Below are positions 1 to 49,356 of a stretch of 64,000 nt of DNA, piece by piece (positions within the stretch are counted from its first letter, which is position 1; each line of letters begins with the position of its first letter). The stretch lies in contig JAHKAJ010000024.1 in assembly GCA_018826075.1 (NCBI GenBank), positions 69,910 to 133,909 on the forward strand, in the 5' to 3' direction. A model generated the notes under the pieces. It saw only the letters and a list, made by a program, of their open reading frames with translations. It did no database searches and was not told the origin of the DNA. Made by a program: the position numbers and the translations under genes. Origin of the DNA: Candidatus Omnitrophota bacterium (GTDB lineage Bacteria; Omnitrophota; Gorgyraeia; Duberdicusellales; 4484-171).

Positions 1-924
1 TTTCCTTATCTTATTGGACTATTCATATTGCTGATATTTTTAAAATCCAGCGGCCTTTCCTTCAATCCTTTCTATACTATTCAACCAGACGAATTGGGAG
101 TATTGCTTCGTTTCGGAAAATTCGTCAAAGCCACTAAATCCGGACTACATTTTAAATGGCCTTTTATCGAGAGGGCCATACCGGTTAAAGTGGAGAAAGT
201 CTTTACCGAGGAGTTCGGTTTTCGCACCCAGTCAACCGGAGTGAGAACTGTTTACAGTCAAAAATCCTACGATGATGAGTCGTTGATGCTTAGCGGCGAT
301 TTAAATGTTTTAGATCTGGAGTGGATTGTCCAATACAAGTTCAAAGATCCCTATGACGTTTTATTCAATGTTAATGATGTGGTTAAAGCCGTCCGGGATG
401 TTTCTGAATCGGTAATGCGCCGGATCGTCGGGGATCATTCCTTCAATGAAGTGCTTACCACCAAGCGTATTGAAATCAACAACCAGGTTCAGGAAGAAAT
501 GCAGCAAATTTTGGATAGTTATAAAATCGGCATTCAGGTGGTAAAGGTGAAATTACAGGACGTTAATCCGCCCGACCCGGTAAAGCCGGCTTTTAACGAA
601 GTCAACCAAGCAAAACAGGAAAGGGAAACGTTAAAAAACCAGGCTTGGGAGGTATATAACCAGAAAATACCTCAGGCCAAGGGTGAGGCTTTGAAGATAA
701 TCAAAGAAGCTGAAGGTTATGCTTTGGAAAAAATTAACCGGGCTAAAGGCGATGCCGAGCGTTTTGTTTTGCTTTATCAAGAATATATCCTTGCCAAAGA
801 GGTAACTTTAAAACGCCTCTATCTAGATAATATGAATGATATTTTAAAGGCAGCCGGCGCAAAATATATAGTTGATCCAAAAGAAAAGGGAATTCTCCCA
901 CTATTAAAGCTTCAACATGAATAA
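1..924 (+). CDS. hflK: HflK, SPFH/band-7 protease modulator. The reading frame is open to position 1, so the 5' end is probably outside the window.
   Basis: The translation has an SPFH domain, an N-terminal hydrophobic segment and a coiled-coil C-terminus. It overlaps the HflC paralog downstream, the typical hflKC arrangement. Confidence 0.75.
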   Translation, partial: FPYLIGLFILLIFLKSSGLSFNPFYTIQPDELGVLLRFGKFVKATKSGLHFKWPFIERAIPVKVEKVFTEEFGFRTQSTGVRTVYSQKSYDDESLMLSGDLNVLDLEWIVQYKFKDPYDVLFNVNDVVKAVRDVSESVMRRIVGDHSFNEVLTTKRIEINNQVQEEMQQILDSYKIGIQVVKVKLQDVNPPDPVKPAFNEVNQAKQERETLKNQAWEVYNQKIPQAKGEALKIIKEAEGYALEKINRAKGDAERFVLLYQEYILAKEVTLKRLYLDNMNDILKAAGAKYIVDPKEKGILPLLKLQHE

Positions 925-21351: not shown

Positions 21352-21987
21352 ATGATTGATAAATTGTTTTTATTGCTTATAGCTGTCAGTTTTGCTTCCT
21401 GCGCGCCGGCGCAGTCCCGTTATCAACAACCACGCCTTCAAGTAAGTTCTTCCCAAAAATTAGAATATACCGTTAAATCCGGAGATTCTTTATGGCGAAT
21501 CGCTCAGCGTTACGGAACCTCCCTTCAAACCTTAATGAAAATCAACAGCCTGGGATCAGCAAGTAAATTAAAAGTCGGCCAGAAAATAAAAGTTCCGAGT
21601 TTGGCTCAAAAAGGCGGAAAGATCTTTAGCTGGCCGCTTAAAGGCCAAGTTTTAAATTTTTTCGGCGATAATGTCGATAACTCGATTAACCGCGGGTTAA
21701 ATATCCAGGCTTTGGATTCTTCGAAAGAAGTGCGGGCGTCTGCCAAAGGTAAGGTAATTTTTTCTGACCAGCTCAAAGGCTGGGGTCAGACGATTATTTT
21801 GCGTCATACTAATGATCTTTACACTATTTATGCAAATCTAGATACTTGCTTAATCAAGGAAGGTGTAATTGTCGAAAAGGAGCAAGCTATCGGCCAGGTT
21901 GCTTCCGGGAAAAATGGAAACTACTTGCTGCATTTTGAGATTCGAAAGCGTTATACTCCCCAAGATCCATTGCAATACATTAATTAG
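21352..21987 (+). CDS. LysM-domain M23 family peptidoglycan endopeptidase (lipoprotein)
   Basis: Lipobox FASC. LysM motif (YTVKSGDSLWRIAQRYG). C-terminal M23 domain (LHFEIR). Confidence 0.8.
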   Translation: MIDKLFLLLIAVSFASCAPAQSRYQQPRLQVSSSQKLEYTVKSGDSLWRIAQRYGTSLQTLMKINSLGSASKLKVGQKIKVPSLAQKGGKIFSWPLKGQVLNFFGDNVDNSINRGLNIQALDSSKEVRASAKGKVIFSDQLKGWGQTIILRHTNDLYTIYANLDTCLIKEGVIVEKEQAIGQVASGKNGNYLLHFEIRKRYTPQDPLQYIN

Positions 21988-24538: not shown

Positions 24539-25579
24539 ATGCAGCGCTACCGAGAAGTTTTTCCAGCATTTCATACTTTATATCGTTTGACCACCACCCT
24601 TGACGATTTATCCAGTTTTGCCATGGGTGTTTGTCGTCTTTATCGCAATGCTTTTTCCGCCGACAAAGTGGTAATTGTCTGTAAAGGCAATGCTTCTCAA
24701 GGGTTTATAAAGATTTGTCTTGAAAATAAACGCTCACAGGTAAAAAAAGGCGGCATTTCCATACTTACCCGCGTTGAGCGCGAATTGCTGAAGCAGGAAA
24801 AGGAACTGGTTTTACCTAATCGGTTGATTTATCCCTTTGTCTTTACCCATGTTTTGGGAGGTATTTACATAAAGCGCGGTTCGCACGCCAACGGTTTTAG
24901 CGAAACTGAAAAGCGCTGGTTTCTGTCTCTTTGCGAGGAAGTCAGCCTGGGCTTAAAAATATTTGAACTTTATCAAGAGCAGAAAAAAATAATGCTTAAT
25001 TACATAAAGTCTCTATCCCAATTTTTAAACCAGTACGTACCTACTTCCTATTTGCACACCAAGATCATATTCCGCCTGATCAAGGCTATGACCAAGGCTT
25101 TAAAATTATCCACTGTAGAAGCACAATCCTTAGAATATGCATCGTTACTCCATGATGCCGGAAAAATGCAGGTCCCTTCACAGCTGCTTAAAAAACAACA
25201 ACCGCTTACCGAAGAAGAATTTAAATTAATCGCTAAACACCCTCGCAAAGGTGTCCAATTGTTTAAAAACCTGGAAATTCTAAAGCCGGCTATACCGATA
25301 ATCTTACACCATCATGAGCGTTATGATGGCAAAGGATACCCTTCGAAGTTAAAGAAAGAACAGATACCCCTGGCTTCAAGAATACTAGCGGTTTTAGATA
25401 CTTTTGATGCGATGTATTTTGGCCGGCCTTATCGGCGTAAACGCCGCCTTAAAGAGATTGAAAAAGAATTTCGTGCCCAGCGCGGAAAACAATTTGACCC
25501 GCGGATTGTCGATGTTTTTCTTTCAATACTCAAACGGAAAAATATACAAAAATACTTCAAATTGTCTTCAAAAAAATAG
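24539..25579 (+). CDS. HD-GYP domain c-di-GMP phosphodiesterase with an N-terminal GAF-like sensory domain
   Basis: HD motif (LLHDAGK) and HHERYDGKGYP, the HD-GYP signature. Confidence 0.8.
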   Translation: MQRYREVFPAFHTLYRLTTTLDDLSSFAMGVCRLYRNAFSADKVVIVCKGNASQGFIKICLENKRSQVKKGGISILTRVERELLKQEKELVLPNRLIYPFVFTHVLGGIYIKRGSHANGFSETEKRWFLSLCEEVSLGLKIFELYQEQKKIMLNYIKSLSQFLNQYVPTSYLHTKIIFRLIKAMTKALKLSTVEAQSLEYASLLHDAGKMQVPSQLLKKQQPLTEEEFKLIAKHPRKGVQLFKNLEILKPAIPIILHHHERYDGKGYPSKLKKEQIPLASRILAVLDTFDAMYFGRPYRRKRRLKEIEKEFRAQRGKQFDPRIVDVFLSILKRKNIQKYFKLSSKK

Positions 25580-34164: not shown

Positions 34165-35346
34165 TCAAGCCTCAAAACCGTTAAATTTTGAGCCGGCCCG
34201 GTAGATAGCGGTTTCTCCAAACTTATCTTTTATCCAATCGGTAGTTTTATCCACCCTTTGTTTTCGTTTATCTTTTTCTTCAGAAAAAAAGCTGTCCTTA
34301 AAATCAGCGTCTAAGCAATTGGAACCTTTGATTCCCAAAAGCCGTATCGGCTGTCGGCCAGGGTTAAAATCCAAATAGAGTTTTTTTACGGTTTGATAGA
34401 TAATACTGGTAGAATTGCTTGCAGCGATCAGGCTTTGAGAACGGCTGTAAGTCTTAAAATCAGCCAGGCGTATTTTTAAAGCGATGGTTTTTACCTTTAG
34501 ATTTTCCTGGCGTAATCTACGGGATACTTTTTCTGAAAGGCCGAGTAAAGTCCCTAAAAGAAGTTCTCTATCTTTGGTATCCTCCTGAAAGGTAACTTCG
34601 TTACTGACTGATTTTATTTTTTGGTTTTCAACAACTGGCCGTTGGTCACAGCCGTTAGCCAATTCCCACCAGTTTAGGCCGATTTTTCCGAATTTTCGAA
34701 CCAGATCCTCGGGATTTTTTACGGCCAAATCACCAATTGTTTTTATGCCCTCGGCTTTAAGCAAGCTTGCACTTTTTTGACCTAGCCCTGAGATTCTCTC
34801 AATCTCCAGGGGATAGATAAAATCTAACAACTGATTTTTACTGACAATGACTAAACCATCGGGTTTTTTAAGCTCAGAAGCGATCTTGGCTGCCATTTTA
34901 TTAGGGGCGCAGCCTATTGAAGCTGTCAGCCGCAGTTCTTTTTTTATTTGTTCTTTGAGGCGTAAGCAGGTTTTTTCGACTCCGCCAAAAAGATGCAAAC
35001 TAGCACTGATATCTAAAAAAGCTTCGTCGATGCCGACTGGTTCGACTTGAGGTGTAAAGTTATCCAGAATTTCATACATTTTATCGGAAACCGCCTGGTA
35101 TTTTTCCATATCAACTGGCAGAAAAACTCCTTGAGGGCACTTCTTATAGGCTGCAGAGATTGCCAAGCCGGAACGAATGCCGAACTTTCTGGCTTCATAA
35201 GAGCAAGTTGAGACTACCCCCCGGCCCCTTCCCTTTTTTGGGTCAGCCCCGACAATTACCGGCCGGTTAACCAATCCAGGGTTATCTCTCTGCTCCACAG
35301 CCGCAAAAAAGGCATCCATATCCAAGTGAATGATCCAGGATTCCAT
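34165..35346 (-). CDS. dinB: DNA polymerase IV (Y-family)
   Basis: IHLDMDAFFAAVEQRDNP...RPVIVGGD-like N-terminus. HhH-containing thumb and little-finger domains. Confidence 0.85.
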   Translation of the reverse strand: MESWIIHLDMDAFFAAVEQRDNPGLVNRPVIVGADPKKGRGRGVVSTCSYEARKFGIRSGLAISAAYKKCPQGVFLPVDMEKYQAVSDKMYEILDNFTPQVEPVGIDEAFLDISASLHLFGGVEKTCLRLKEQIKKELRLTASIGCAPNKMAAKIASELKKPDGLVIVSKNQLLDFIYPLEIERISGLGQKSASLLKAEGIKTIGDLAVKNPEDLVRKFGKIGLNWWELANGCDQRPVVENQKIKSVSNEVTFQEDTKDRELLLGTLLGLSEKVSRRLRQENLKVKTIALKIRLADFKTYSRSQSLIAASNSTSIIYQTVKKLYLDFNPGRQPIRLLGIKGSNCLDADFKDSFFSEEKDKRKQRVDKTTDWIKDKFGETAIYRAGSKFNGFEA

Positions 35347-35457: not shown

Positions 35458-36708
35458 TTAAGGGCTTTTTTCGGGATTAAACCGGGAAATCTGCCTGATT
35501 CGTTCTAAAACCGGTGGATGGCTATAATCCAGGAATACTTTTAAGTGGTGAGGGGTTAAATTAGAAAGATTGTTTACAGTCAGTTTTTTTAAAGCCAGGA
35601 TAAAAGCCTCAGGCTGATCATAGGTAGTTACTGAAAACCGGTCAGCTTCATATTCGTGCCGCCGGGAAAACAGGTTGCCGACTATGGAAAAAATAAAGCC
35701 TATCGGGGTATAAAGAAAACTGAAAAAAATAAGGCTGGCATAAACCGAAATTTGCTCCATCCTAAAAGCTTCAAACAGCCCCGGATTGTTAATAAAAAAA
35801 GAAAGCAGGTAAAACATCAGACCTTTAGTTAGGATCGAGTAGATAAAATTTTTCAGGATATGATTTTTTTTATAGTGGCCGACTTCATGAGCTAACACTG
35901 AGACTATTTCGCTGACACTGTGTTTTTGGATCAAAGTATCGTAAAGGGCGATCCGGCGGGACTTACCAAAGCCGCAAAAGAAAGCGTTAGCTTTGGTTGA
36001 ACGCCGTGATCCATCGATTTTATAAATCCCTTTTAAAGCAAACTTTTGCGAATCAGCATAACGGTTAACCGCATTTTTCAGTTCCCCGTCTTCCAAAGGC
36101 CTAAACTTGTTAAAAAGTGGCAAGATCAACAACGGATAGATAAAGGTGATCAGCCAGCTGAAAATAACCACTCCTAGCCAGCACCAGATCCAAGCTCCGG
36201 GCCCAAAACTGGCAAAAAGAACAATAATCGCATAAAAAGGAAGGCCGCCGATAATCACTAAAAGCAGCCAACTTTTAAGCTTATCGGCAATAAAAGTTTT
36301 AACCCGGGTTTGGTTAAACCCATATCTTTCTTCGATAACAAAAGTGCGGTACCAGGAAAAAGGTAACTCCAGAATTTGAGCGACAAAAATAATGATTCCG
36401 GCAAAAATCAATCCGGTTAACGCGAAATTTAAATTCAGGCTACGGGCGATCCGGTCAGCCAGGTTAAAACCTCCGATCAGAATAAAACCGACAACCGCTA
36501 AAGTAAAGACTGTTTCCTGAACCAGGTTGAATTTGGTATTTGTGGTAAGGTATCTTTGGGATTTACGGTAGCTTTCCGGTTGATAATAGCCTTTAAATTC
36601 TTCTGGCAGGTCAGGATCAAGCGCCCTAAGGTTAAGGATTTCAGCTAAAAACCTAAACAGGTAGTTAACGGCTAAAATAGTTAAAATCGCGATTAGATAT
36701 AGATTCAT
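35458..36708 (-). CDS. Ste24-type (CAAX prenyl protease-like) M48 family zinc metalloprotease, polytopic membrane protein
   Basis: About seven TM helices. HEVGHYKKNH (HExxH) and downstream E...NLSN motifs of M48A. Confidence 0.75.
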   Translation of the reverse strand: MNLYLIAILTILAVNYLFRFLAEILNLRALDPDLPEEFKGYYQPESYRKSQRYLTTNTKFNLVQETVFTLAVVGFILIGGFNLADRIARSLNLNFALTGLIFAGIIIFVAQILELPFSWYRTFVIEERYGFNQTRVKTFIADKLKSWLLLVIIGGLPFYAIIVLFASFGPGAWIWCWLGVVIFSWLITFIYPLLILPLFNKFRPLEDGELKNAVNRYADSQKFALKGIYKIDGSRRSTKANAFFCGFGKSRRIALYDTLIQKHSVSEIVSVLAHEVGHYKKNHILKNFIYSILTKGLMFYLLSFFINNPGLFEAFRMEQISVYASLIFFSFLYTPIGFIFSIVGNLFSRRHEYEADRFSVTTYDQPEAFILALKKLTVNNLSNLTPHHLKVFLDYSHPPVLERIRQISRFNPEKSP

Positions 36709-36740
36709 CAGTGGGATAGGCTTAAGTTAAAATTGGCAGG

Positions 36741-36766
36741 TAATAAAAAGGGCCGACAAGGGCCCA
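36741..36766 (-). terminator. intrinsic terminator forming the expression platform of the c-di-GMP riboswitch
   Basis: Minus strand GGGCC-CUUGUC-GGCCC followed by UUUUUAUU. It ends about 33 nt upstream of the ATG of the M48 gene. Confidence 0.5.
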
Positions 36767-36849
36767 CGGTATGTCAACCGGCAACTCAGCCGCCCTAATA
36801 GCCCTTAAGGGTTTTAATCCGTAAGTTGGGGGAGCCTGTTTTTCGAAAG

Positions 36850-36945
36850 ATTTTGGACTTTTAACCCCCGGAACTATCTTAGGCCTGTTACAGCTTTGCG
36901 TCCCCGCCTTTCGACGGGTTTGCCCTTATCGGCAATTAAAGTATA
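36850..36945 (-). promoter_or_regulatory. c-di-GMP-I (GEMM) riboswitch aptamer
   Basis: Minus-strand RNA AAGGGCAAACC-CGUC-GAAA-GGCGG-GGACGCAAAGC-UGUAACAGG-CCUAAG... matches the GEMM-I consensus (AGGGCAAACC, P1b hairpin with GNRA tetraloop, GGACGCAAAGC, GGCCUAA) nearly base-for-base. Compare the Vibrio Vc2 aptamer. Confidence 0.7.
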
Positions 36946-36984
36946 CCTTATTCAGGCTGCCAATTTCAAGTCTAAGTAACCAGT

Positions 36985-38031
36985 TTATTTAGCCAAGTGC
37001 ACAGTTTGAGTCGGAAAGGCAAATTCAATACCGCGTTTTTCAAGTTCAGCCTTTATCGAAAAGTTGATTTCCTGCTGAATATCCATATACTTGTTGTAAT
37101 CCGAACTTAACACATAGTAAACCACTTCAAAAACCAGGTTAAAATCGCCGTAAGCGGAAAAATGAGCCCGGTCAAAAAGCGCATCTTTGACTTTTTTTAT
37201 GATCTCGGCAATCGCCCCCGGCATTTCTTTGAGTTTGGAGAGCGGAGTGTCGTAGGTGACTCCTAGATGAAAGACAACCCTTCTTTTCTGCATTCGTTTA
37301 TAGTTACGCAGGCGGGAATCAGTTAAATCAGAGTTAGAAAAAACCAGTTCTTCTCCGCCAAGGCTACGAATGCGAGTAGTCTTGATGCCGACGTGTTCGA
37401 CAGTGCCCAGAAGGTCTCCGACTATGATAAAATCGCCTATTTCAAAGGGACGGTCAATAACAATTGCAAAGTAACTGAATAAATCTTTTAAAACTGCCTG
37501 AGCCGCTAAAGCTATGGCTACACCACCGATACCCAGGCCGGCAATAACCGTTGTAATTTTAAACCCCAAGTTATCCAGATAAAAAATAAGGGCTAAAACC
37601 CAGATCGAAAATTTAACTACCTTCAATACTCCACTCAAGCTGTGTTTTAATGACTGGCCTTTGTCGGATTTATGCCAGTATACTTCAAAACCATAGTTGA
37701 CCAAACGGATGATCAGGCGAACCGAAAACACAGTCAGAACCGCAATGGCTAAGGTATTAATAATCCGCACCAGATAATCGTTTAAAGTTAGGGACTTGAT
37801 CCCTAGGTATAACCCAAAAAGGTAAAGAAAAGGTACGGCTATCTTTTCAATGATCTCCACTAAAAAATCGTCAAGGGTATTGCTGGTTTTTTCTGCCCAA
37901 CTTTTAAGACGTTTTAAAAAGATTATTTTAAATACTTTGGCCGCAAAACTGATGCCTAAAAAAATAGCCGCACAAATCAAATAACTCAACAATGAATTAC
38001 CAAAAAATATGAGATTTAGAGACTCTGGCAT
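36985..38031 (-). CDS. mechanosensitive ion channel, MscS family
   Basis: Multiple N-terminal TM helices followed by an MscS beta-domain (IGDFIIVGDLLGTVEHVGIKTTRIRSLGGEE). Confidence 0.8.
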   Translation of the reverse strand: MPESLNLIFFGNSLLSYLICAAIFLGISFAAKVFKIIFLKRLKSWAEKTSNTLDDFLVEIIEKIAVPFLYLFGLYLGIKSLTLNDYLVRIINTLAIAVLTVFSVRLIIRLVNYGFEVYWHKSDKGQSLKHSLSGVLKVVKFSIWVLALIFYLDNLGFKITTVIAGLGIGGVAIALAAQAVLKDLFSYFAIVIDRPFEIGDFIIVGDLLGTVEHVGIKTTRIRSLGGEELVFSNSDLTDSRLRNYKRMQKRRVVFHLGVTYDTPLSKLKEMPGAIAEIIKKVKDALFDRAHFSAYGDFNLVFEVVYYVLSSDYNKYMDIQQEINFSIKAELEKRGIEFAFPTQTVHLAK

Positions 38032-38045
38032 AATTCCTCCTGAAC

Positions 38046-39239
38046 TTAGTTTTCCGATATTAAATAGGGAGATTTGGCCTTTTGTATATTTAGAGCGATA
38101 GAAAGCTCTTGTTCTGATAAAAAGCCGGATTCCTTTAGGATCTCACCAAGAGCCACGCCTTTTTTCCAATGAGTCAAAAGGGCTTCGTTAAGTTGTTCGG
38201 CAGAGATTGATTGCCGTTCGACTAAAATCTGGCCCAAAGGTTTATAGAAGCTTTCGGATTTACGTTGGGAAATCTCCGGCTTAGCATCTTTGTTTATTTT
38301 AGTATCCCGGCGGTCAACCATAAACTTACTTCCCGGGATAGCTTTCAGATAACGTTTTATCTCAGCGACCTTCTCATTGAGCTGGATCATGTTTTCAATT
38401 CCAAAAGTATACTCTTTATTTACTACCGCCACCGAAACTGTCATTAAAGGCGTATTAGTAAGTTTACGCGACCGGTCCCGGCTTACCACAAAACCCTGCT
38501 GACGGTCAGTTTCAGAATAATGAAAAGGCATCAGCTGGTCAAAATTCTTAATGAAGTTACGGCAAATCTTTTGATATTTGTCCAAGCTGGAAATAAAAAC
38601 GAAATCATCGCCTCCAATATGGCCGACGAAATCGTCGGGATTGCCGAAATTTCTTACTGCCGCGATCAATAAATAGGCAGTCTGAAGTATCGCCCCGTCT
38701 CCTCTACGGTAACCATAAACATCATTAAAAGATTTAAAATTATCGATATCCAAGTAAGCAAAAGAAAAAGGATTGCCTTTTTTAAATTTTTCATTCAGAA
38801 CATCCTCAAATATCTTGCTTCCGGGAAGGCCGGTTAAAGAGCTGGCATAGATGCTATGTTGAGAACGCCTGACCGCCATCTCGATTCTTATCCGTAAATC
38901 TAATGGGTCCGGTGGTTTTATTAAATAGTCATCCACGCCTTGTTTTAAGTTTAACAACTGGGCTCTTAATTGGCGTTTATTGATTAGGGTTATAACCGGT
39001 ATAAAAGCAGTGGTGAAATTTTCTTTTAACTGCCGGCAGATAGCCAGTTGTTCCTTACGGGCAGATTGGATATCGATGACAATCACATCGGGTGAAATTT
39101 TTTTGATTTTTTCGATATCCTGAGGTTCAGAGAATTGGCGCAAAATAACTTCATAGCCCCAGCCGTCAAAGCAAAAACGCAAAACTTCCTTTAGCTGGTT
39201 GTCAGAAGAAATAATCAGGATTTTCTTAATGGTATCCAT
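38046..39239 (-). CDS. response-regulator receiver, GGDEF diguanylate cyclase and C-terminal MshEN-like c-di-GMP-binding domain
   Basis: REC domain (DIVIIDIQ, Asp pocket). GGDEF domain with GGDDF active-site motif and RGDG. The C-terminus carries two LG(Q/E)IL...(S/L)..(E/Q)L..AL repeats typical of MshEN/T2SSE_N. Confidence 0.75.
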   Translation of the reverse strand: MDTIKKILIISSDNQLKEVLRFCFDGWGYEVILRQFSEPQDIEKIKKISPDVIVIDIQSARKEQLAICRQLKENFTTAFIPVITLINKRQLRAQLLNLKQGVDDYLIKPPDPLDLRIRIEMAVRRSQHSIYASSLTGLPGSKIFEDVLNEKFKKGNPFSFAYLDIDNFKSFNDVYGYRRGDGAILQTAYLLIAAVRNFGNPDDFVGHIGGDDFVFISSLDKYQKICRNFIKNFDQLMPFHYSETDRQQGFVVSRDRSRKLTNTPLMTVSVAVVNKEYTFGIENMIQLNEKVAEIKRYLKAIPGSKFMVDRRDTKINKDAKPEISQRKSESFYKPLGQILVERQSISAEQLNEALLTHWKKGVALGEILKESGFLSEQELSIALNIQKAKSPYLISEN

Positions 39240-39352: not shown

Positions 39353-42300
39353 TTATTCTTTTTTTGGTTTCTTTTGTTCCTCGGATATTTTTTGGGCGAT
39401 TTCCTTAGGCACCGGAATATACTTTTTAAAGTGCATTGAACAACTGGCCCGGCCGCTGGAAAGTGACCGTAGATTAGTGACATGGCCGAACATCTCAGCC
39501 AAAGGAGCTTCAGCCAGGATCTGTTTCTGGCCGCCTTTAGTCTCCATGCCCAAAATTTTACCTCTTCGGGAACAGATATAACCGACAATGCTGCTGGTGT
39601 ATTCTTCGGGAGTGAGGATCTCTAAATCCATGCAAGGTTCAATAAGGGTTGGCTCGCACTTTAAAAAAGCTTCACGAAAACAGCCCAAAGCCGCAAGCTT
39701 AAAGGCAATCTCTGAAGAATCGACCTCATGATAGGAACCATCGATAAGGTTTATTTTAATATCCACTACTGGATAACCGGCATAAGCGCCTTTCTTCATG
39801 GCCTCAATAAGGCCCTTTTGAACTGCCGGAATAAAATTTTTAGGTATAGCCCCACCTTTAATGCTGTCAGTAAATTCAAATCCGGCTGCCGGCTGGTTAG
39901 GAGAAAGCTCAAAAACTACGTGGCCGTACTGACCTCGTCCTCCGCTTTGTTTAACATGCTTATATTCCTGAGTTGCTGAGCCGGAAATTGTCTCTTTATA
40001 GGCTACTTTGGGCTGACCCACCGTAGCCGAAACCTTAAATTCTTCTTTGAGACGCTCAACAATTATTTCCAAATGCAGTTCGCCCATTCCCGAAAGAATT
40101 GTCTCAAGAGTCTCTTCATCAGTGTGAGCGGTAAAGGTCGGGTCTTCTTCGGTAAGTTTAGCGATTCCTTTAGCCAACCGGTCCTGATCAGTGCGGCTTT
40201 CCGGTTTGATGCTTATCGAAACTACTGGATCGGAAAAAACTATTGATTCAAGCAGTATGGGGTTTTCTGAATTGCAAAGAGTATCTCCAGTTAAAGTAAA
40301 GTTCAACCCGACTATTGCTCCGATATCACCGGCAAACATAACGTCAACGTTTTCCCTCTGGTTGGCATGCATGCGGACAATCCTACCCACGCGTTCTTTT
40401 TTATTTTTAGTCGCGTTTAGAATATAACTACCGGCCTTTAAAAACCCCGAATAAACCCGTGCGTAAACCAACTTGCCTACGTGTTGATCAGCCTGAACCT
40501 TAAAAGCTAAGGCCGAAAAAGTTTCCTCATCCTGAGGCTTACGTTCTAATTTTTTTTCCGGGTCATCAGGGTCATTGCCGATCACTGCCGGTACTTGGGC
40601 CGGCGACGGCAAATAAACAGTAATCGCATCAAGCAAATCCTGGATACCTTTGTTTTTTAAAGCTGCTCCGCATAAAACCGGTATGATCTTATTTTCAACT
40701 GTCGCCTGATGCAGAGCTTTCTTAATCTCCTCGTTAGTAATTGTATCTTCTGACTGAAGATATTTTTCCATCAGTTGGTTGTCAAAAGAAGCAACTTTTT
40801 CTATTAAGCTGTGGCGGTATTGTTTAGCCAACTCCTTGTCGTTTTCGGGTATTTCTTCCAGCTTGATATCTTTGCCGAAGGAATTCTCATCATAAAATTT
40901 AGCCTTCATCTCAATAAGGTCGATCACACCCTTAAACTCAGTTTCTTTGCCGACCGGTATTTGTAAAGCTACGGCATTAGCCCCGAGAGTAGTGACTATT
41001 TCCTGAAAAACTTTAAAAAAATCAGCACCCAGTCTGTCCATTTTGTTAATAAAGGCTATTTTGGGGACTTTATATTTAATCGATTGGCGCCAGACAGTCT
41101 CGGTTTGTGATTCAACTCCGCCTACCGCACAAAATACTGCGACTGCTCCGTCAAGAACCCTCAAAGATCGTTCTACCTCAGCGGTAAAATCAACGTGGCC
41201 AGGAGTATCAATGATCGTGATCTGGCAATCAGCCCAATTACAGGTAGTTGCTGCTGAAGTTATGGTAATGCCTCTTTCCTGTTCTTGTTTCATCCAATCC
41301 ATCTGGGCAGCTCCGTCATGGACTTCGCCGATTTTATGAGAACGGCCGGTATAAAAAAGAATCCTTTCAGTGAGCGTAGTCTTTCCAGCGTCAATATGGG
41401 CCATAATGCCGATATTGCGGATTTTATCCAAAGTTATTTTTCTTTCCGGAGGCGGTTCTTCTTTTTTCTTAACCATCTCCGTCTTGACTTCCGGTTCGGG
41501 TTTAGCTATCTCTTCCTCTGCCGGTAGCTGGATCGGGGCCGGATTTTCAGCTAATGGTTCTTCAGCTGGAACTTCCAAAGGCGGACTTTCTTCAGGCAAC
41601 TCGGGAATTGCCGGTTTTTCTTCCGGGTTTTGCGGTTCAGGCGTTAAAGTAACGGTACGCTCAAGACCCCGCAACTGGTTAAGAATACGGATCCTTTCCT
41701 CATCAATTTTTTTTGTTTCTTCCTCTTTGAGCGTCAACTCCTTTTTTTTGATTTCCAGTTCGTCTCGCAAATTTTCACATTGATTTTCCAACAAAGAATA
41801 ATCTTCTTTGGAAATCCAGCCGCTTTGACGCTCTTGTTCCTTAAGTTTGGTCAAATCGGCCAGATATTGGTTTTTTTCTTTAGCTAGATCCTGCATCTTT
41901 TGGCCCTGCTCTTTGGCTTTAGTCTCTAATAAGATTATTTTCTCATTTAGCTGGCTGAGGTTTTCCTCTTTTATCCCGATCACTTCTTCGGTTTGCTTAA
42001 GGTCCTTCTTAAGCTGGACATTATTGGAAAATTCTTTTTCCAACTGTTTTTCGGTTTCAATGAATTTAAACTTTAAAGTTTCATAAGGGCCTTTGCCTTT
42101 TTTCAAAATATCCTGTTGGCTATTCAGCCATTTTTTATTTCGTTGCAGTTCATCAGTCAACTCTTTGACCTTTTGGCTGCTGGCCTGATATTTTTGCTGT
42201 AAAGCCAAGTTATCAGTCTTAGCCTTTTCCAAAGAAATGTTTTCATTTCTAACTTCTAACATTTCCCGTTTTAAAATTTTAACATTTTCATGAAGGGTGA

Positions 42301-42439
42301 GGATTTTTTGAGCCTCGGGGCTGGACTTGGAAAGGAATCCCCGGCTAAGCAATTTTTTCGGGTCTAAAGAATCGTCGGTATTTACCGCGTAAAGAACCAG
42401 GGCTACCGCTACTCCGATAAAAAGAAAAATTACCACCAT
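39353..42439 (-). CDS. elongation factor G homolog fused in-frame to an N-terminal TM anchor, ~250-aa coiled coil and Pro/Glu-rich linker
   Basis: Residues ~340-1028 are a full EF-G ([14 protein letters not shown], domain [11 protein letters not shown]). Residues 1-330 are a hydrophobic N-terminus, Lys/Glu/Gln-rich heptad sequence and a PEPE linker, with no stop codon in the frame. An internal Met ~20 aa before the G-domain could be an alternative start. Confidence 0.7.
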
Positions 42440-45123: not shown

Positions 45124-45837
45124 TTAAGCTGAATGAGTAATATGGCGTTCAACGAACAATACGATTTTTTCTTGAGTTTTTGCATCGAGATCGTAAAACT
45201 CAAGGCCCATTCCCGGAAAATCATCAGGCTGGATCTCCTGGTCAGTGATCCAGACCACTTTAGTGTCTACCTCAATGACCCCTGGTTCCGGCAAAAGGTG
45301 CACCCGGCTGGTAAGCGAATCACCTATCGAAAAAAGTTTTTGAGCCGCCACAAAGACTCCATCAGCGCTTAAATTGATGATTTTACCGCTGTAGAATTCG
45401 GCTTGGTCAGAAAATTTTTGCCGGTATTCGATGACTGTATTGAGGGGTATGCGCGTGAAGCGGCGCCGAAAGGGTTTTTCTGAAGGCGATCCAGAGTGGG
45501 TTTCTTCCTTGATTTTTTTAAAAGCGTGGTCTTCAGTAACGTGGTATTCAAACACCCGGTCTAGGCCGACGATGGAAAATAATTTCATTACGTGAGACGG
45601 GACATTGCAGAGTTTTATTATTCCGTTATGGTTAAGTACATTTTTATAGATCACCGCTATTAACGAAATACCTACATAATCAATCAGATTGACCGATTCA
45701 AAATTGCAAATGATCTGTTTAGATTTATTAGTCAAGACCCAGCCTACAGTCTCAACAAAGTTGGATGCATTTATATCGATATTGCCTTCCAGGTCTAAAA
45801 TTGCTACGTCGTCTTTCTCGCGAATATTAATATTCAT
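45124..45837 (-). CDS. STAS (anti-sigma-factor antagonist-like) domain fused to a C-terminal PilZ domain
   Basis: N-terminal region (DVAILDLEGNIDINAS...NFESVNLIDYVGISLIAVI...LCNVPSHVMKLFSIVGLDRVF) matches the SpoIIAA/STAS pattern. The C-terminus has RRRFTRIP (RxxxR) and a D.S.DGVFV-like PilZ signature. Confidence 0.6.
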   Translation of the reverse strand: MNINIREKDDVAILDLEGNIDINASNFVETVGWVLTNKSKQIICNFESVNLIDYVGISLIAVIYKNVLNHNGIIKLCNVPSHVMKLFSIVGLDRVFEYHVTEDHAFKKIKEETHSGSPSEKPFRRRFTRIPLNTVIEYRQKFSDQAEFYSGKIINLSADGVFVAAQKLFSIGDSLTSRVHLLPEPGVIEVDTKVVWITDQEIQPDDFPGMGLEFYDLDAKTQEKIVLFVERHITHSA

Positions 45838-47299: not shown

Positions 47300-49294
47300 T
47301 TAAAATTCGTAGTTAACTTTAACGATGAAATTTCTGGTCGGATTAGGGTATAAATTATAAGCTCCGGTAGTAGCATTCCTCACTCCGTATTCGCTGTATT
47401 CACGGGAAGCTAAATTGTTAACGCCGGCCAAAAACTTCCAATTATCTCGGGAGTAAGATAAAGATAGATTGATAGTTTGATAGGCTCCAATCCGGTCATA
47501 CCTATTAGCCTGATCATTAATATAAAATTTTTCATCGATGCAGTTAGTTGACAGGTCGATTTTTAAACTTTCCAGCGGCAGCCAACGCATGCCAATCAGA
47601 ACTTTATTGCGCGGTACCATCGGAATGGTATTTCCGGCATAGGAATCGCCCCGGAAGGTCGCCTTAAGATAAGTATAGTTACCGTAAAGCTCAAGCCAGC
47701 TAAAAAATTTAGCATCAAAGGAAAATTCGATCCCGTCACGCCGGGTCTTGTTGTAATTTTCGTTGGCGCCGAAAGCAAAAGGGCCTCCGGTGGGATTATA
47801 ATAAAGTTCGTTTTCCAAATCCATCCGGAATAACGACAAACCGGCCTGGAAATTATCATTGAACTTTTGCTCGGTTCCGATTTCGAAATTATCGGAAACT
47901 TGGGGTTTCAAATCCAGATTAAGCGAACCCCAGGTAAAATATTCGTCGGTTGCCGGGGTACGGAAGCTTCGGCTGATGTTTAAAAATACTTTTGATTGTT
48001 CGGTATGGCTATAAACCAAACCGCTGTTGTAAGCTTTCTGGTAAAAGTCGCTTTTACGGTCAATGTCGGGATAGGTCCCGGAATTATCATGATAATCAAA
48101 ATCGTAGCTTACCTTTTCTCTGCGGTAGCCTCCGATCAACTTTAACTTTTCAAAAATTGAAAATTCATTCTGAAAGTAAGCGGCGTAGGTTGTTTTATTA
48201 ATATCGTTGAAGTCCTGAAGCTGATCGGAAAGATTGTAAGTGTCGGCGCTGTAGTCGTATTGATATATATCGATACCGGCGATCAAGCTATTGTCGTGGC
48301 CGAAAAACGGCTGTTTAAAAGCATGTTTAGAGGTTAAGGAAAAGGTTTCAATATAGCTTTTAAGAATCGGATTCCAGCCGGCATTGGCTCCCAAAAAGTA
48401 ACTGTATGCATCGCGGTTACGAAATGACAGATCAACTGAGCTTTCTCCCCATTGGCCAAAATCTTTATCTAATCCCAAAGTGAAATAATAGTCTTTTTCT
48501 TTAACATAATCGTCCCCGTATTTAGAGTGGGTTCGGTCAAAAACTTCTAAATCGGTTCCGCTTAAATTACCGGGCAGGCCAAAGTCAGCTTTGTGAAAAC
48601 CGCTGTCAAAACGTAAATTCCAATCCGGACCGAAAGCATATTCAAGCTTTGATCCGAAATCATAACTTTTAAGATAGCTGTTATTGCGATAACCGTGGGT
48701 ATGAATACGACTTCCGGTCAGCTGGTAAGAAAGTTTTTCCAAAGAACCGCTCAAGGAGAGCTCTTCAGAATCAAAGTTATAGCTGCCATACTGGCTTTTG
48801 TAGCTGAGTTTGGGTTTACCCCGGCCTTTTTTGGTAATAATATTTACTACGCCGGATACGGCATTGTCGCCGTACAAAACCGCTCCCGACCCGCCACGGA
48901 TGACTTCAATGCGTTCAACCTGGCTTAAAGGTATTTGCGACCAATCGACGCCGCTTAAGTCGACTTCATTGATTCTTCTTGAATCAATAAGAACTACCGA
49001 GTTCATTGCTGCCTGTTCGCCAAATCCCCTAATGTCAATAGAAGCTTTAGCTGAATTACCATACCAATCTCTGACTACAATACCGGGGACAACCCTTAAG
49101 CTATCCAAAACTGTTACCGGATTACCGTTTTCGATATCCTCTTGGCCTATAACCGTCAATGAACCACAAGTTTGGCCGGCTGCCTGGGGGTAACGATAAG
49201 GGGTCACTACTATTTGTTCTAAATTAATCTGTTGAGCCATTAAATAAAAAGGAACCGCTAACAACCATGAAAGAACCGTTAATGTTTTTTTCAT
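47300..49294 (-). CDS. TonB-dependent outer-membrane receptor (BtuB-like, cobalamin-riboswitch controlled)
   Basis: Signal peptide, plug domain, beta-barrel with C-terminal aromatic residue (…VNYEF). Start set at the Met after the leader of the ORF-track ORF. The cobalamin riboswitch lies immediately upstream. Confidence 0.8.
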   Translation of the reverse strand: MKKTLTVLSWLLAVPFYLMAQQINLEQIVVTPYRYPQAAGQTCGSLTVIGQEDIENGNPVTVLDSLRVVPGIVVRDWYGNSAKASIDIRGFGEQAAMNSVVLIDSRRINEVDLSGVDWSQIPLSQVERIEVIRGGSGAVLYGDNAVSGVVNIITKKGRGKPKLSYKSQYGSYNFDSEELSLSGSLEKLSYQLTGSRIHTHGYRNNSYLKSYDFGSKLEYAFGPDWNLRFDSGFHKADFGLPGNLSGTDLEVFDRTHSKYGDDYVKEKDYYFTLGLDKDFGQWGESSVDLSFRNRDAYSYFLGANAGWNPILKSYIETFSLTSKHAFKQPFFGHDNSLIAGIDIYQYDYSADTYNLSDQLQDFNDINKTTYAAYFQNEFSIFEKLKLIGGYRREKVSYDFDYHDNSGTYPDIDRKSDFYQKAYNSGLVYSHTEQSKVFLNISRSFRTPATDEYFTWGSLNLDLKPQVSDNFEIGTEQKFNDNFQAGLSLFRMDLENELYYNPTGGPFAFGANENYNKTRRDGIEFSFDAKFFSWLELYGNYTYLKATFRGDSYAGNTIPMVPRNKVLIGMRWLPLESLKIDLSTNCIDEKFYINDQANRYDRIGAYQTINLSLSYSRDNWKFLAGVNNLASREYSEYGVRNATTGAYNLYPNPTRNFIVKVNYEF

Positions 49295-49321
49295 ATTTTT
49301 CTCCCGGATAAAAATACTCAA

Positions 49322-49356
49322 AAATAAAAAAACCCTATACCGCATTTGGTATAGGG
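49322..49356 (-). terminator. intrinsic terminator (expression platform of the cobalamin riboswitch)
   Basis: Minus strand CCCUAUACC-AAAUGC-GGUAUAGGG followed by UUUUUUUAUUUUU, about 30 nt before the receptor start. Confidence 0.55.

Follow-up and report, generated by a model that had tools for sequence, protein, structure and literature searches.

The 64,000-nucleotide (nt) window analysed here covers positions 69,910 to 133,909 of contig JAHKAJ010000024.1 (assembly GCA_018826075.1) from a Candidatus Omnitrophota bacterium. On its minus strand, a gene for an MscS-type channel (38031..36985) is followed by a leader region and by the gene of a Ste24-like zinc metalloprotease of family M48 (35458..36708, 416 amino acids). 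The protease carries HEVGH with a downstream EYEAD, shares 100% identity with an NCBI protein that bears the name of a Candidatus Omnitrophica metagenome-assembled genome, and matches PF16491 Peptidase_M48_N (173 bits, 7e-51) and PF01435 Peptidase_M48 (115.8 bits, 3e-33), corresponding to the N-terminal five-helix domain and the catalytic domain of the family named in an initial annotation of the stretch. The leader contains an aptamer of the GEMM-I class, which senses c-di-GMP (cyclic diguanosine monophosphate), followed by a terminator-like hairpin and a U-run. Judged from its sequence, this element is a genuine riboswitch, with a predicted promoter and terminator of its own, placed ahead of a membrane protease gene in an uncultured Omnitrophota bacterium.

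The Rfam model RF01051 (c-di-GMP-I/GEMM-I) matches the leader at 36934..36777 over model positions 1-87 of 87, at 61.7 bits where the gathering score is 35 bits (E = 1.2e-9 in the 64-kb window, 5.6e-12 in the leader alone); all leader coordinates below likewise refer to the minus strand. The same search returns no second GEMM-I match in the 64-kb window, and no Rfam family besides RF01051 matches the M48 leader, its P2 insertion included. The first hairpin, P1a (GC-AAA-CCCGUC-GAAA-GGCGGG-GAC-GC, 36923..36898), ends in a GAAA tetraloop and the second carries CCUAAG in the P2 5' strand (36895..36874), so the aptamer is of the tetraloop/receptor type. According to the RF01051 alignment, the equivalents of the conserved residues G20 and A47 are G36924 and A36897, and a structured insertion of 71 nt occupies the P2 terminal loop (36872..36802). 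The P2 3' strand (36801..36783) leads into the aptamer tail GCCGGU (36782..36777), which includes C36781, the equivalent of C92. A canonical P1 built from the nucleotides directly flanking G20 and C92 was not seen on inspection by eye. All defining features of GEMM-I that can be checked in silico are present in the window element.

The full-length match bears out the aptamer that the initial annotation had placed here. The motifs it quoted, AAGGGCAAACC-CCGUC GAAA GGCGG-GGACGCAAAGC ... GGCCUAAG, are present, and the conserved G20 and C92 positions are accommodated. Its layout of an aptamer, a spacer of ~95 nt and a terminator has to be redrawn: GGCCUAAG is merely the 5' strand of P2, and the 95 nt consist of the 71-nt P2-loop insertion and the 3' half of the aptamer, so that only 12 nt separate the aptamer from the start of the terminator.

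The element recurs in relatives. A set of 160 other M48 loci, 80 from species-representative genomes and 80 from metagenomes, was checked with Rfam on the nearest twenty, with a motif scan and with a covariance model of the aptamer 5' half (R1). Just two of them carry the element, L008 and L017, in keeping with the earlier remark that such a protease is an uncommon GEMM target; the motif scan, which would miss cores of the L174 type, found L008 only, and the R1 model added only L017. Contigs encoding the closest proteins in a large protein collection added L161, L162, L163, L167 (identical to L168), L174 (near-identical to L175) and L299 (5'-truncated by the contig end), and with the window included nine distinct M48 leaders carry the element. 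The complete leaders score 57.8-67.6 bits with RF01051 and the truncated L299 38.7 bits. Seven of the eight other leaders, L299 among them, exceed the Rfam threshold; L017 lies just below it at 34.5 bits and is therefore missed by a threshold-based scan.

The M48 proteins behind these leaders are 57-68% identical, and the order EF-G-like, REC-GGDEF, MscS, leader, M48, DinB is kept in seven of the nine. L174 is flanked by other genes, with VanZ upstream and nitroreductases downstream, and on the short L299 contig a LigD_N gene is all that is seen downstream; in both, the element stands directly before the M48 gene. Three relatives, L164, L165 and L166, have the same gene order with an MscS-M48 spacer of 18 nt and no element. 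At their junction (L164, 2960..3003, plus strand) the promoter-riboswitch-terminator cassette is missing and a remnant of the -35 box is left. Their M48 protein is 83% identical to that of L167 and nested among those of riboswitch-bearing relatives, which together with the gene order and the -35 remnant indicates that the leader was secondarily deleted in this lineage. Loci P0008, P0009, P0010, P0012 and P0013 have spacers of 6-35 nt and no leader. The sequence comparison thus presents the link between GEMM-I and M48 as real, conserved and confined to a small clade, and this clade supplies natural controls, with a clean leader deletion in a nested relative and extra insertions in others. Viral contigs scanned for the pattern GCCGATAARGGYAAAC yielded over 120 matches, every one of them coding or chance and none with the remaining GEMM core. 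Elsewhere in the window, a weak match to the R1 model at 21424..21376 (minus strand, 20.8 bits, E 0.06), inside the open reading frame (ORF) 21352..21987, is probably due to chance.

Within the aptamer, three stem positions of P1a have changed on both sides with the pair kept in four of seven sequences, and the P2 stem covaries and runs ~7 pairs past the Rfam model in the homolog alignment. All leaders have the GAAA loop, and the 5' half of the receptor reads CCUAA(G/A/C); the receptor 3' half is the canonical UAUGG in L174 and L017 and deviates elsewhere (UUAGG in the window and L161). The equivalents of G20, A47 and C92 are G, A and C in every homolog in which the alignment retains the position. 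Riboswitches for cyclic GMP-AMP (cGAMP), designated GEMM-Ib, have A at the position of G20 in the Vibrio cholerae riboswitch Vc2; the GEMM-Ib element of Geobacter pilM has this A where the window element has G. All eight leaders that retain the 5' end have G here and the cGAMP-type A does not occur among them, which argues for c-di-GMP and against 3',3'-cGAMP. In Vc2, G20 pairs with G-alpha, C92 pairs with G-beta, and A47 intercalates and contacts the ligand; between them they recognise both guanines of c-di-GMP and contact its backbone, whereas GEMM-Ib recognises c-AMP-GMP (PMC5888326). The element is accordingly classed as a class-I c-di-GMP riboswitch of GEMM-I type 1, with c-di-GMP as its predicted ligand.

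Between the mscS stop (36985) and the aptamer lies a promoter-like site (36940..36969) composed of TTGAAA (36969..36964), an 18-nt spacer and TATACT (36945..36940), with 10/12 matches to sigma-70-like hexamers. A single site of this kind is not above chance in the A+T-rich spacer (3 found vs 5.6 expected). The arrangement is repeated in all eight leaders with an intact 5' end, which share TTGNNN, a spacer of 17-18 nt, TATA(A/C)T and a distance of exactly 6 nt to the G of GCCGAU. The RNA very probably starts, on this prediction, at or beside G36933. Since the promoter is conserved at a fixed distance, the element is very probably a separate transcription unit and not just the 3' untranslated region of mscS, the objection that the initial annotation had raised against itself. 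No other terminator-like site lies between the mscS stop and the M48 gene, so transcripts reading through from mscS would still pass the element.

Downstream of the aptamer, a linker hairpin (CGGU-UGACAU-ACCG, 36780..36767), whose 5' strand begins at the C93 equivalent, is followed by hairpin T (GGGCC-CUUGUC-GGCCC, 36765..36750; strands 36765..36761 and 36754..36750). The linker contains an extra perfect hairpin within its loop in L161 and is replaced by other hairpins at the same position in L174, L008 and L017. The U-run UUUUUAUU (36749..36742) adjoins T directly on the 3' side, and the resulting terminator-like site (36765..36742) lies where it had been reported, with its U-run 33 nt ahead of the ATG (36708). 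The T stem has 5 base pairs (bp) and a folding energy of -9.0 kcal/mol in the window, at the weak end of the range for gene-end sites there, and the region shows no enrichment of terminator-like sites (2 found vs 3.8 expected). Across leaders T has 4-6 pairs and -2.5 to -9.0 kcal/mol, and it is flush with a U-run of at least 4 U in six of seven leaders and also in L017.

A second helix competes with this hairpin. The 5'-terminal 12 nt of the RNA, strand X (GCCGAUAAGGGC, 36933..36922), include A17 A18 G19 G20 G21 C22 and are invariant in seven of the eight leaders with a 5' end, L174 reading GCCGAUAAAGGU. Strand X' (GCCCUUGUCGGC, 36763..36752) is complementary to X through 11 Watson-Crick pairs and one G-U pair; it spans 3 nt of the T 5' strand, the entire T loop and 3 nt of the T 3' strand. 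The 12-bp helix X:X' has a duplex energy of -22.8 kcal/mol in the window. It closes the leader in the unconstrained minimum-free-energy (MFE) fold of all seven complete leaders, and also of L017. In truncation series it becomes the MFE structure once 6-9 nt of X' have emerged, before the T 3' strand (7/7 leaders). Across homologs X and X' pair in 96% of cells, versus 23-51% with the partner slid. Changes within the helix are compatible and one-sided (U-G to U-A, G-C to G-U), and in L174, where C22 has become U, P1a (GACGC to GACAC) and X' (GCCC to ACC) both carry a matching change, provided that one A is bulged. Otherwise X and X' are invariant while P1a varies freely, a pattern that fits strands with several partners: X can self-fold, X' folds into T, and the start of X is nearly repeated in the aptamer tail UUGCCGGU. 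The flanking pairs of T, outside X', change together (GG/CC; AA/UU in L162; CUU/AAG in L299), and L174 has a different T 5' strand. When the pocket nucleotides are blocked, the downstream RNA alone folds into linker and T in six of seven leaders.

T and the aptamer have no nucleotide in common; X:X' overlaps both G19-C22 and T. Two exclusive states are well supported by this modelling: one that would hold the aptamer together with T, and one in which X:X' would exclude both. An antiterminator of the kind found in the Clostridioides difficile riboswitch Cd1, formed by the aptamer 3' strand and the T 5' strand, was also considered and is not conserved. Just past the U-run, the stretch ACCUGCCAAUUUUAAC (36740..36725) is a further copy of the UGCC(A/G)(A/G)U motif common to the RNA 5' end and the aptamer tail; it is found in L161, L008 and L017 too, and weakly in L162. 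L299 has a variant platform (1..290, plus strand), with the X' core in the hairpin CUUGCC-UUAUC-GGCAAG, which no U-run follows; ~40 nt further on comes a separate hairpin of 10 bp with a U-rich tail, and a Shine-Dalgarno-like AAGGGG precedes the AUG.

The same features might be taken for a constitutive terminator of the mscS operon, with an aptamer that is either a decaying relic or tuned to another ligand such as 3',3'-cGAMP, as in GEMM-Ib. The lack of any other terminator before M48, a helix that abuts the U-run in both modelled states, the nested relative that lost its entire leader and the slightly sub-threshold score of L017 would all suit such a state. It is nevertheless highly improbable: the aptamer is full length, scores far over the threshold and covaries across M48 proteins of 57-68% identity, the promoter is conserved, the G20 equivalent is nowhere the cGAMP-type A, and pairing of X' with pocket nucleotides makes sense only for a switch.

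For the direction of that switch, the reading we favour, at a probability of about 0.5, is an OFF switch in which c-di-GMP would cause termination. A transcript from the riboswitch's own promoter would control M48, and possibly dinB downstream, at the intrinsic terminator 33 nt before the start codon. In the bound state, the aptamer would hold G19-C22 and C92/C93, leaving the downstream RNA to fold locally as linker hairpin and T; the bottom pairs of T would reach the U-run and RNA polymerase would terminate. In the free state, X would zip onto the emerging X', withdrawing G20-C22 from the aptamer and tying up the 5' strand and loop of T before its 3' strand is made. The free helix of the window would end two C's short of the U-run, the rC-dG pairs of the hybrid would stay unmelted, and read-through would follow. 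The net effect would be that c-di-GMP switches the protease gene off. This layout is suggested because the bound aptamer and T are compatible and the only conserved competitor of T also destroys the aptamer. As for the observed geometry, X:X' leaves a gap of 2 nt (CC) before the U-run in the window, L161 and L017 and a gap of 1 nt in L008 and L163. In the free state of L017, the two bottom G's of T are taken up by an independent linker hairpin. Leader by leader, the OFF arrangement fits the window, L161, L163 and L017, and the remaining leaders besides L162 are ambiguous.

Several observations weigh against an OFF switch. T is weak, with -9.0 kcal/mol in the window, -5.7 in L008 and L167 and -2.5 in L162, and the terminator of a cobalamin riboswitch in the same window is stronger (9 bp, -14 kcal/mol). 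In six of seven leaders X:X' comes to within 0-2 nt of the U-run, being flush with it in L162 and L174, and could itself terminate; L162 fits an ON switch better. With the pocket blocked, the MFE structure of five of the seven leaders keeps a 6-bp remnant of X:X' in place of T, and such folding proved undecisive as a discriminator between ON and OFF. Covariation likewise failed to separate the two helices, as X:X' has no in-register double substitution and the covariation of T, measured on few sequences, does not go beyond shuffles (94/500). X:X' pairs 3 nt of the T 3' strand, so a free U-tract-adjacent strand of the Cd1 type is not found. Finally, neither helix is flush with a U-run in L167, and T is not followed by one in L299, which suggests that the output may have shifted in some members, towards translation or 5'-end accessibility.

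Read-through on c-di-GMP binding, as the initial annotation had presumed, is not what the anatomy most simply predicts, and an ON switch is a possible but less probable alternative to the OFF arrangement. X:X' would then be the real terminator stem, enclosing the aptamer, and c-di-GMP would lock A17-C22 and allow read-through; binding would remove the top half of the stem and its nucleation site, leaving only weak helices (T or the 6-bp remnant). X:X' is indeed the most stable helix adjacent to the U-run (-14 to -22.8 vs -2.5 to -9 kcal/mol for T) and forms co-transcriptionally in the truncation folding of all seven leaders. It is flush in L162 and L174, and T is essentially absent in L162 (-2.5). 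Its three bottom pairs (GCC:GGC) are invariant, and the strand adjacent to the U-run is complementary to each of the two that contact the ligand, X and the tail UUGCCGGU. The Geobacter pilM GEMM-Ib ON switch has a homologous aptamer fold and likewise a terminator exclusive with the aptamer (PMC9262584); unlike here, that terminator is built from internal and 3' strands of the aptamer and not from its 5' end. Against this stand the C's that separate X:X' from the U-run (two in the window, L161 and L017, one in L008 and L163), which pair only in T. A gap beside the U-tract disfavours termination (PMC3993855). An ON switch also leaves no role for the flanking pairs of T or for the separate T 5' strand of L174. 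Persistence of the X:X' remnant in the blocked-pocket folding, counted above in favour of this helix, has a second side: an ON state would still terminate, because T or the X(1-8):X' remnant can form when the ligand is bound.

The output may also lie outside termination, in translation initiation or in 5'-end-dependent mRNA decay. The 5' end of the mRNA would be buried in the 12-bp helix in the free state and would be released as an 8-nt tail in the bound state. Such an output appears unlikely on the whole. It would suit the coincidence of the predicted transcript start with X in all leaders, the AUG 9-10 nt past X' in L163 and L167 and 17 nt past it in L174, the retention of X' and T without a flush U-run in L167 and L299, and the absence of an evident Shine-Dalgarno sequence ahead of the M48 AUG in most leaders. 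It is opposed by the U-run of at least 4 U directly after T in six of seven leaders and in L017, by the window AUG, which lies 43 nt past X' and outside the helix, and by the fact that the 5' end itself is a prediction.

Comparison with characterised riboswitches brings the OFF arrangement closest to Cd1 (Cdi-1-3, in the flgB leader) of C. difficile, a GEMM-I aptamer that also lacks an adjacent P1 and is followed by a spacer, a terminator compatible with the bound aptamer and a competing free-state structure. Cd1 is a transcriptional OFF switch in which aptamer and terminator coexist and an antiterminator competes (PMC9262584). The Cd1 antiterminator joins the aptamer 3' strand to the terminator 5' strand; here, by contrast, it would be formed by the 5'-terminal strand of the aptamer, over the terminator loop and part of both terminator strands, ending beside the U-run. 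The sign of the switch is ambiguous for this reason, as the competing helix covers the loop and both strands of T, and the element provides a compact setting for the question whether a long-range helix beside a U-tract terminates or antiterminates. The core is that of Vc2: two hairpins, a GAAA tetraloop with the CCUAAG...UA(U/G)GG receptor, the conserved strands GGCAAAC and GACGCAAAG, and the equivalents of G20, A47 and C92. In contrast to Vc2, a structured domain of 54-74 nt replaces the P2 loop of 3-4 nt, and the pocket lacks a directly flanking P1 helix; the 5' strand has its only complement 25-45 nt further downstream, past the linker hairpin. Vc2 is also described as a translational switch (PMC9262584), whereas the site here is terminator-like.

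Class-I c-di-GMP switches of C. difficile are nearly all OFF switches, and one of them, Cdi-1-12, precedes zmpI (PPEP-1), which c-di-GMP represses (zmpI transcript down 62.6-fold, riboswitch region 31.3-fold; PMC6200980). As here, a class-I riboswitch stands directly ahead of a zinc metalloprotease gene; ZmpI, however, is a secreted Pro-Pro endopeptidase that cleaves adhesins, and the present protein is a polytopic Ste24-like membrane protease. The closest functional parallels are thus Cd1 in its platform and Cdi-1-12 in the kind of target, and both are OFF switches. Full-text searches turned up no literature report that places a c-di-GMP riboswitch ahead of an M48/Ste24 gene or in Omnitrophota; a Leptospira paper that names a CAAX protease and c-di-GMP-I together proved irrelevant. 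The element is a new instance of a known RNA class, with unusual add-ons rather than a new kind of element, and leaves the known working of GEMM-I unchanged. It widens the class to include Candidatus Omnitrophota and, as a target, a Ste24-like M48 membrane protease, and gives a testable c-di-GMP output in an uncultured phylum. Its lineage-specific features are the conserved P2 domain, the helix from the 5' end to the terminator and the narrow, recently lost-and-kept distribution.

The P2 domain is found in all nine leaders, as an insertion of 54-74 nt at the same place, where the Rfam consensus has 3-4 nt; the window insertion contains the conserved motif GCUCCCCCAAC. An extension stem of P2 within the insertion covaries among homologs. 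In L162, L163, L167 and L017, an inner helix of nine pairs is never broken and shows a compensatory change at three pairs. It closes a loop of ~25 nt that is conserved in sequence and not in pairing (...AAACGCAAC-R-CUCCCCAAC). GCUCCCC(C)AAC is retained in another fold in the window, L161 and L008 and is absent from L174 and L299. A pseudoknot that may join the G-run 5' of the inner helix to the C-rich loop was also considered; its topology is inconsistent between subgroups. L017 (2650..2866, plus strand) has a second insertion of ~65 nt beside the junction strand that carries A47, with two hairpins (UUCCGC..GCGGAA and CCCCGCA..UGCGGGG) between GGACG and GCAAAGCC. It is conceivable, as a long shot, that the grafted P2 domain is a second functional module to which a protein, another ligand or a different part of the leader docks. 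Such a module would make the c-di-GMP response conditional and the whole a composite two-input riboswitch, of which the extra insertion in L017 would be a further elaboration.

Beyond the protease, dinB (Pol IV, IMS and IMS_C domains; 35346..34165, minus strand) begins 111 nt past the M48 stop and follows M48 in every syntenic relative. No terminator-like site separates the two genes, and dinB may for this reason be co-regulated by the riboswitch. The c-di-GMP genes listed in the initial annotation are present in the window, apart from one domain: an HD-GYP-motif gene (24539..25579, plus strand; HD...HHERYDGKGYP), a STAS-PilZ gene identified with Pfam (45837..45124, minus strand; RxxxR and D/NxSxxG present) and a REC-GGDEF gene (39239..38046, minus strand) directly upstream of mscS. 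The signature of the last reads GGDDF and its Pfam match covers the first 90 of 161 GGDEF positions; the MshEN domain (Pfam T2SSE_N) also attributed to this protein has no Pfam match. Its C-terminal ALGEILKESGFLSEQELSIALNIQ, a degenerate motif, resembles the c-di-GMP-binding 24-mer of MshEN except at two positions. An EF-G homologue of 1028 amino acids (42439..39353, minus strand), with EF-G domains from residue 339, passes in its N-terminal ~330 residues from a Lys/Glu-rich, coiled-coil-like stretch into a Pro-rich one, and the long form (1028-1052 amino acids) heads the gene cluster in relatives too. Further upstream lies the cobalamin riboswitch (RF00174, 49595..49419, minus strand, 79.4 bits), whose terminator at about 49355..49326 consists of the 9-bp hairpin CCCUAUACC/GGUAUAGGG and U7 (-14 kcal/mol). 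It is followed by the ORF of a TonB-dependent receptor (49345..47300, minus strand); the listed start overlaps the terminator, and the true start is therefore probably further downstream.

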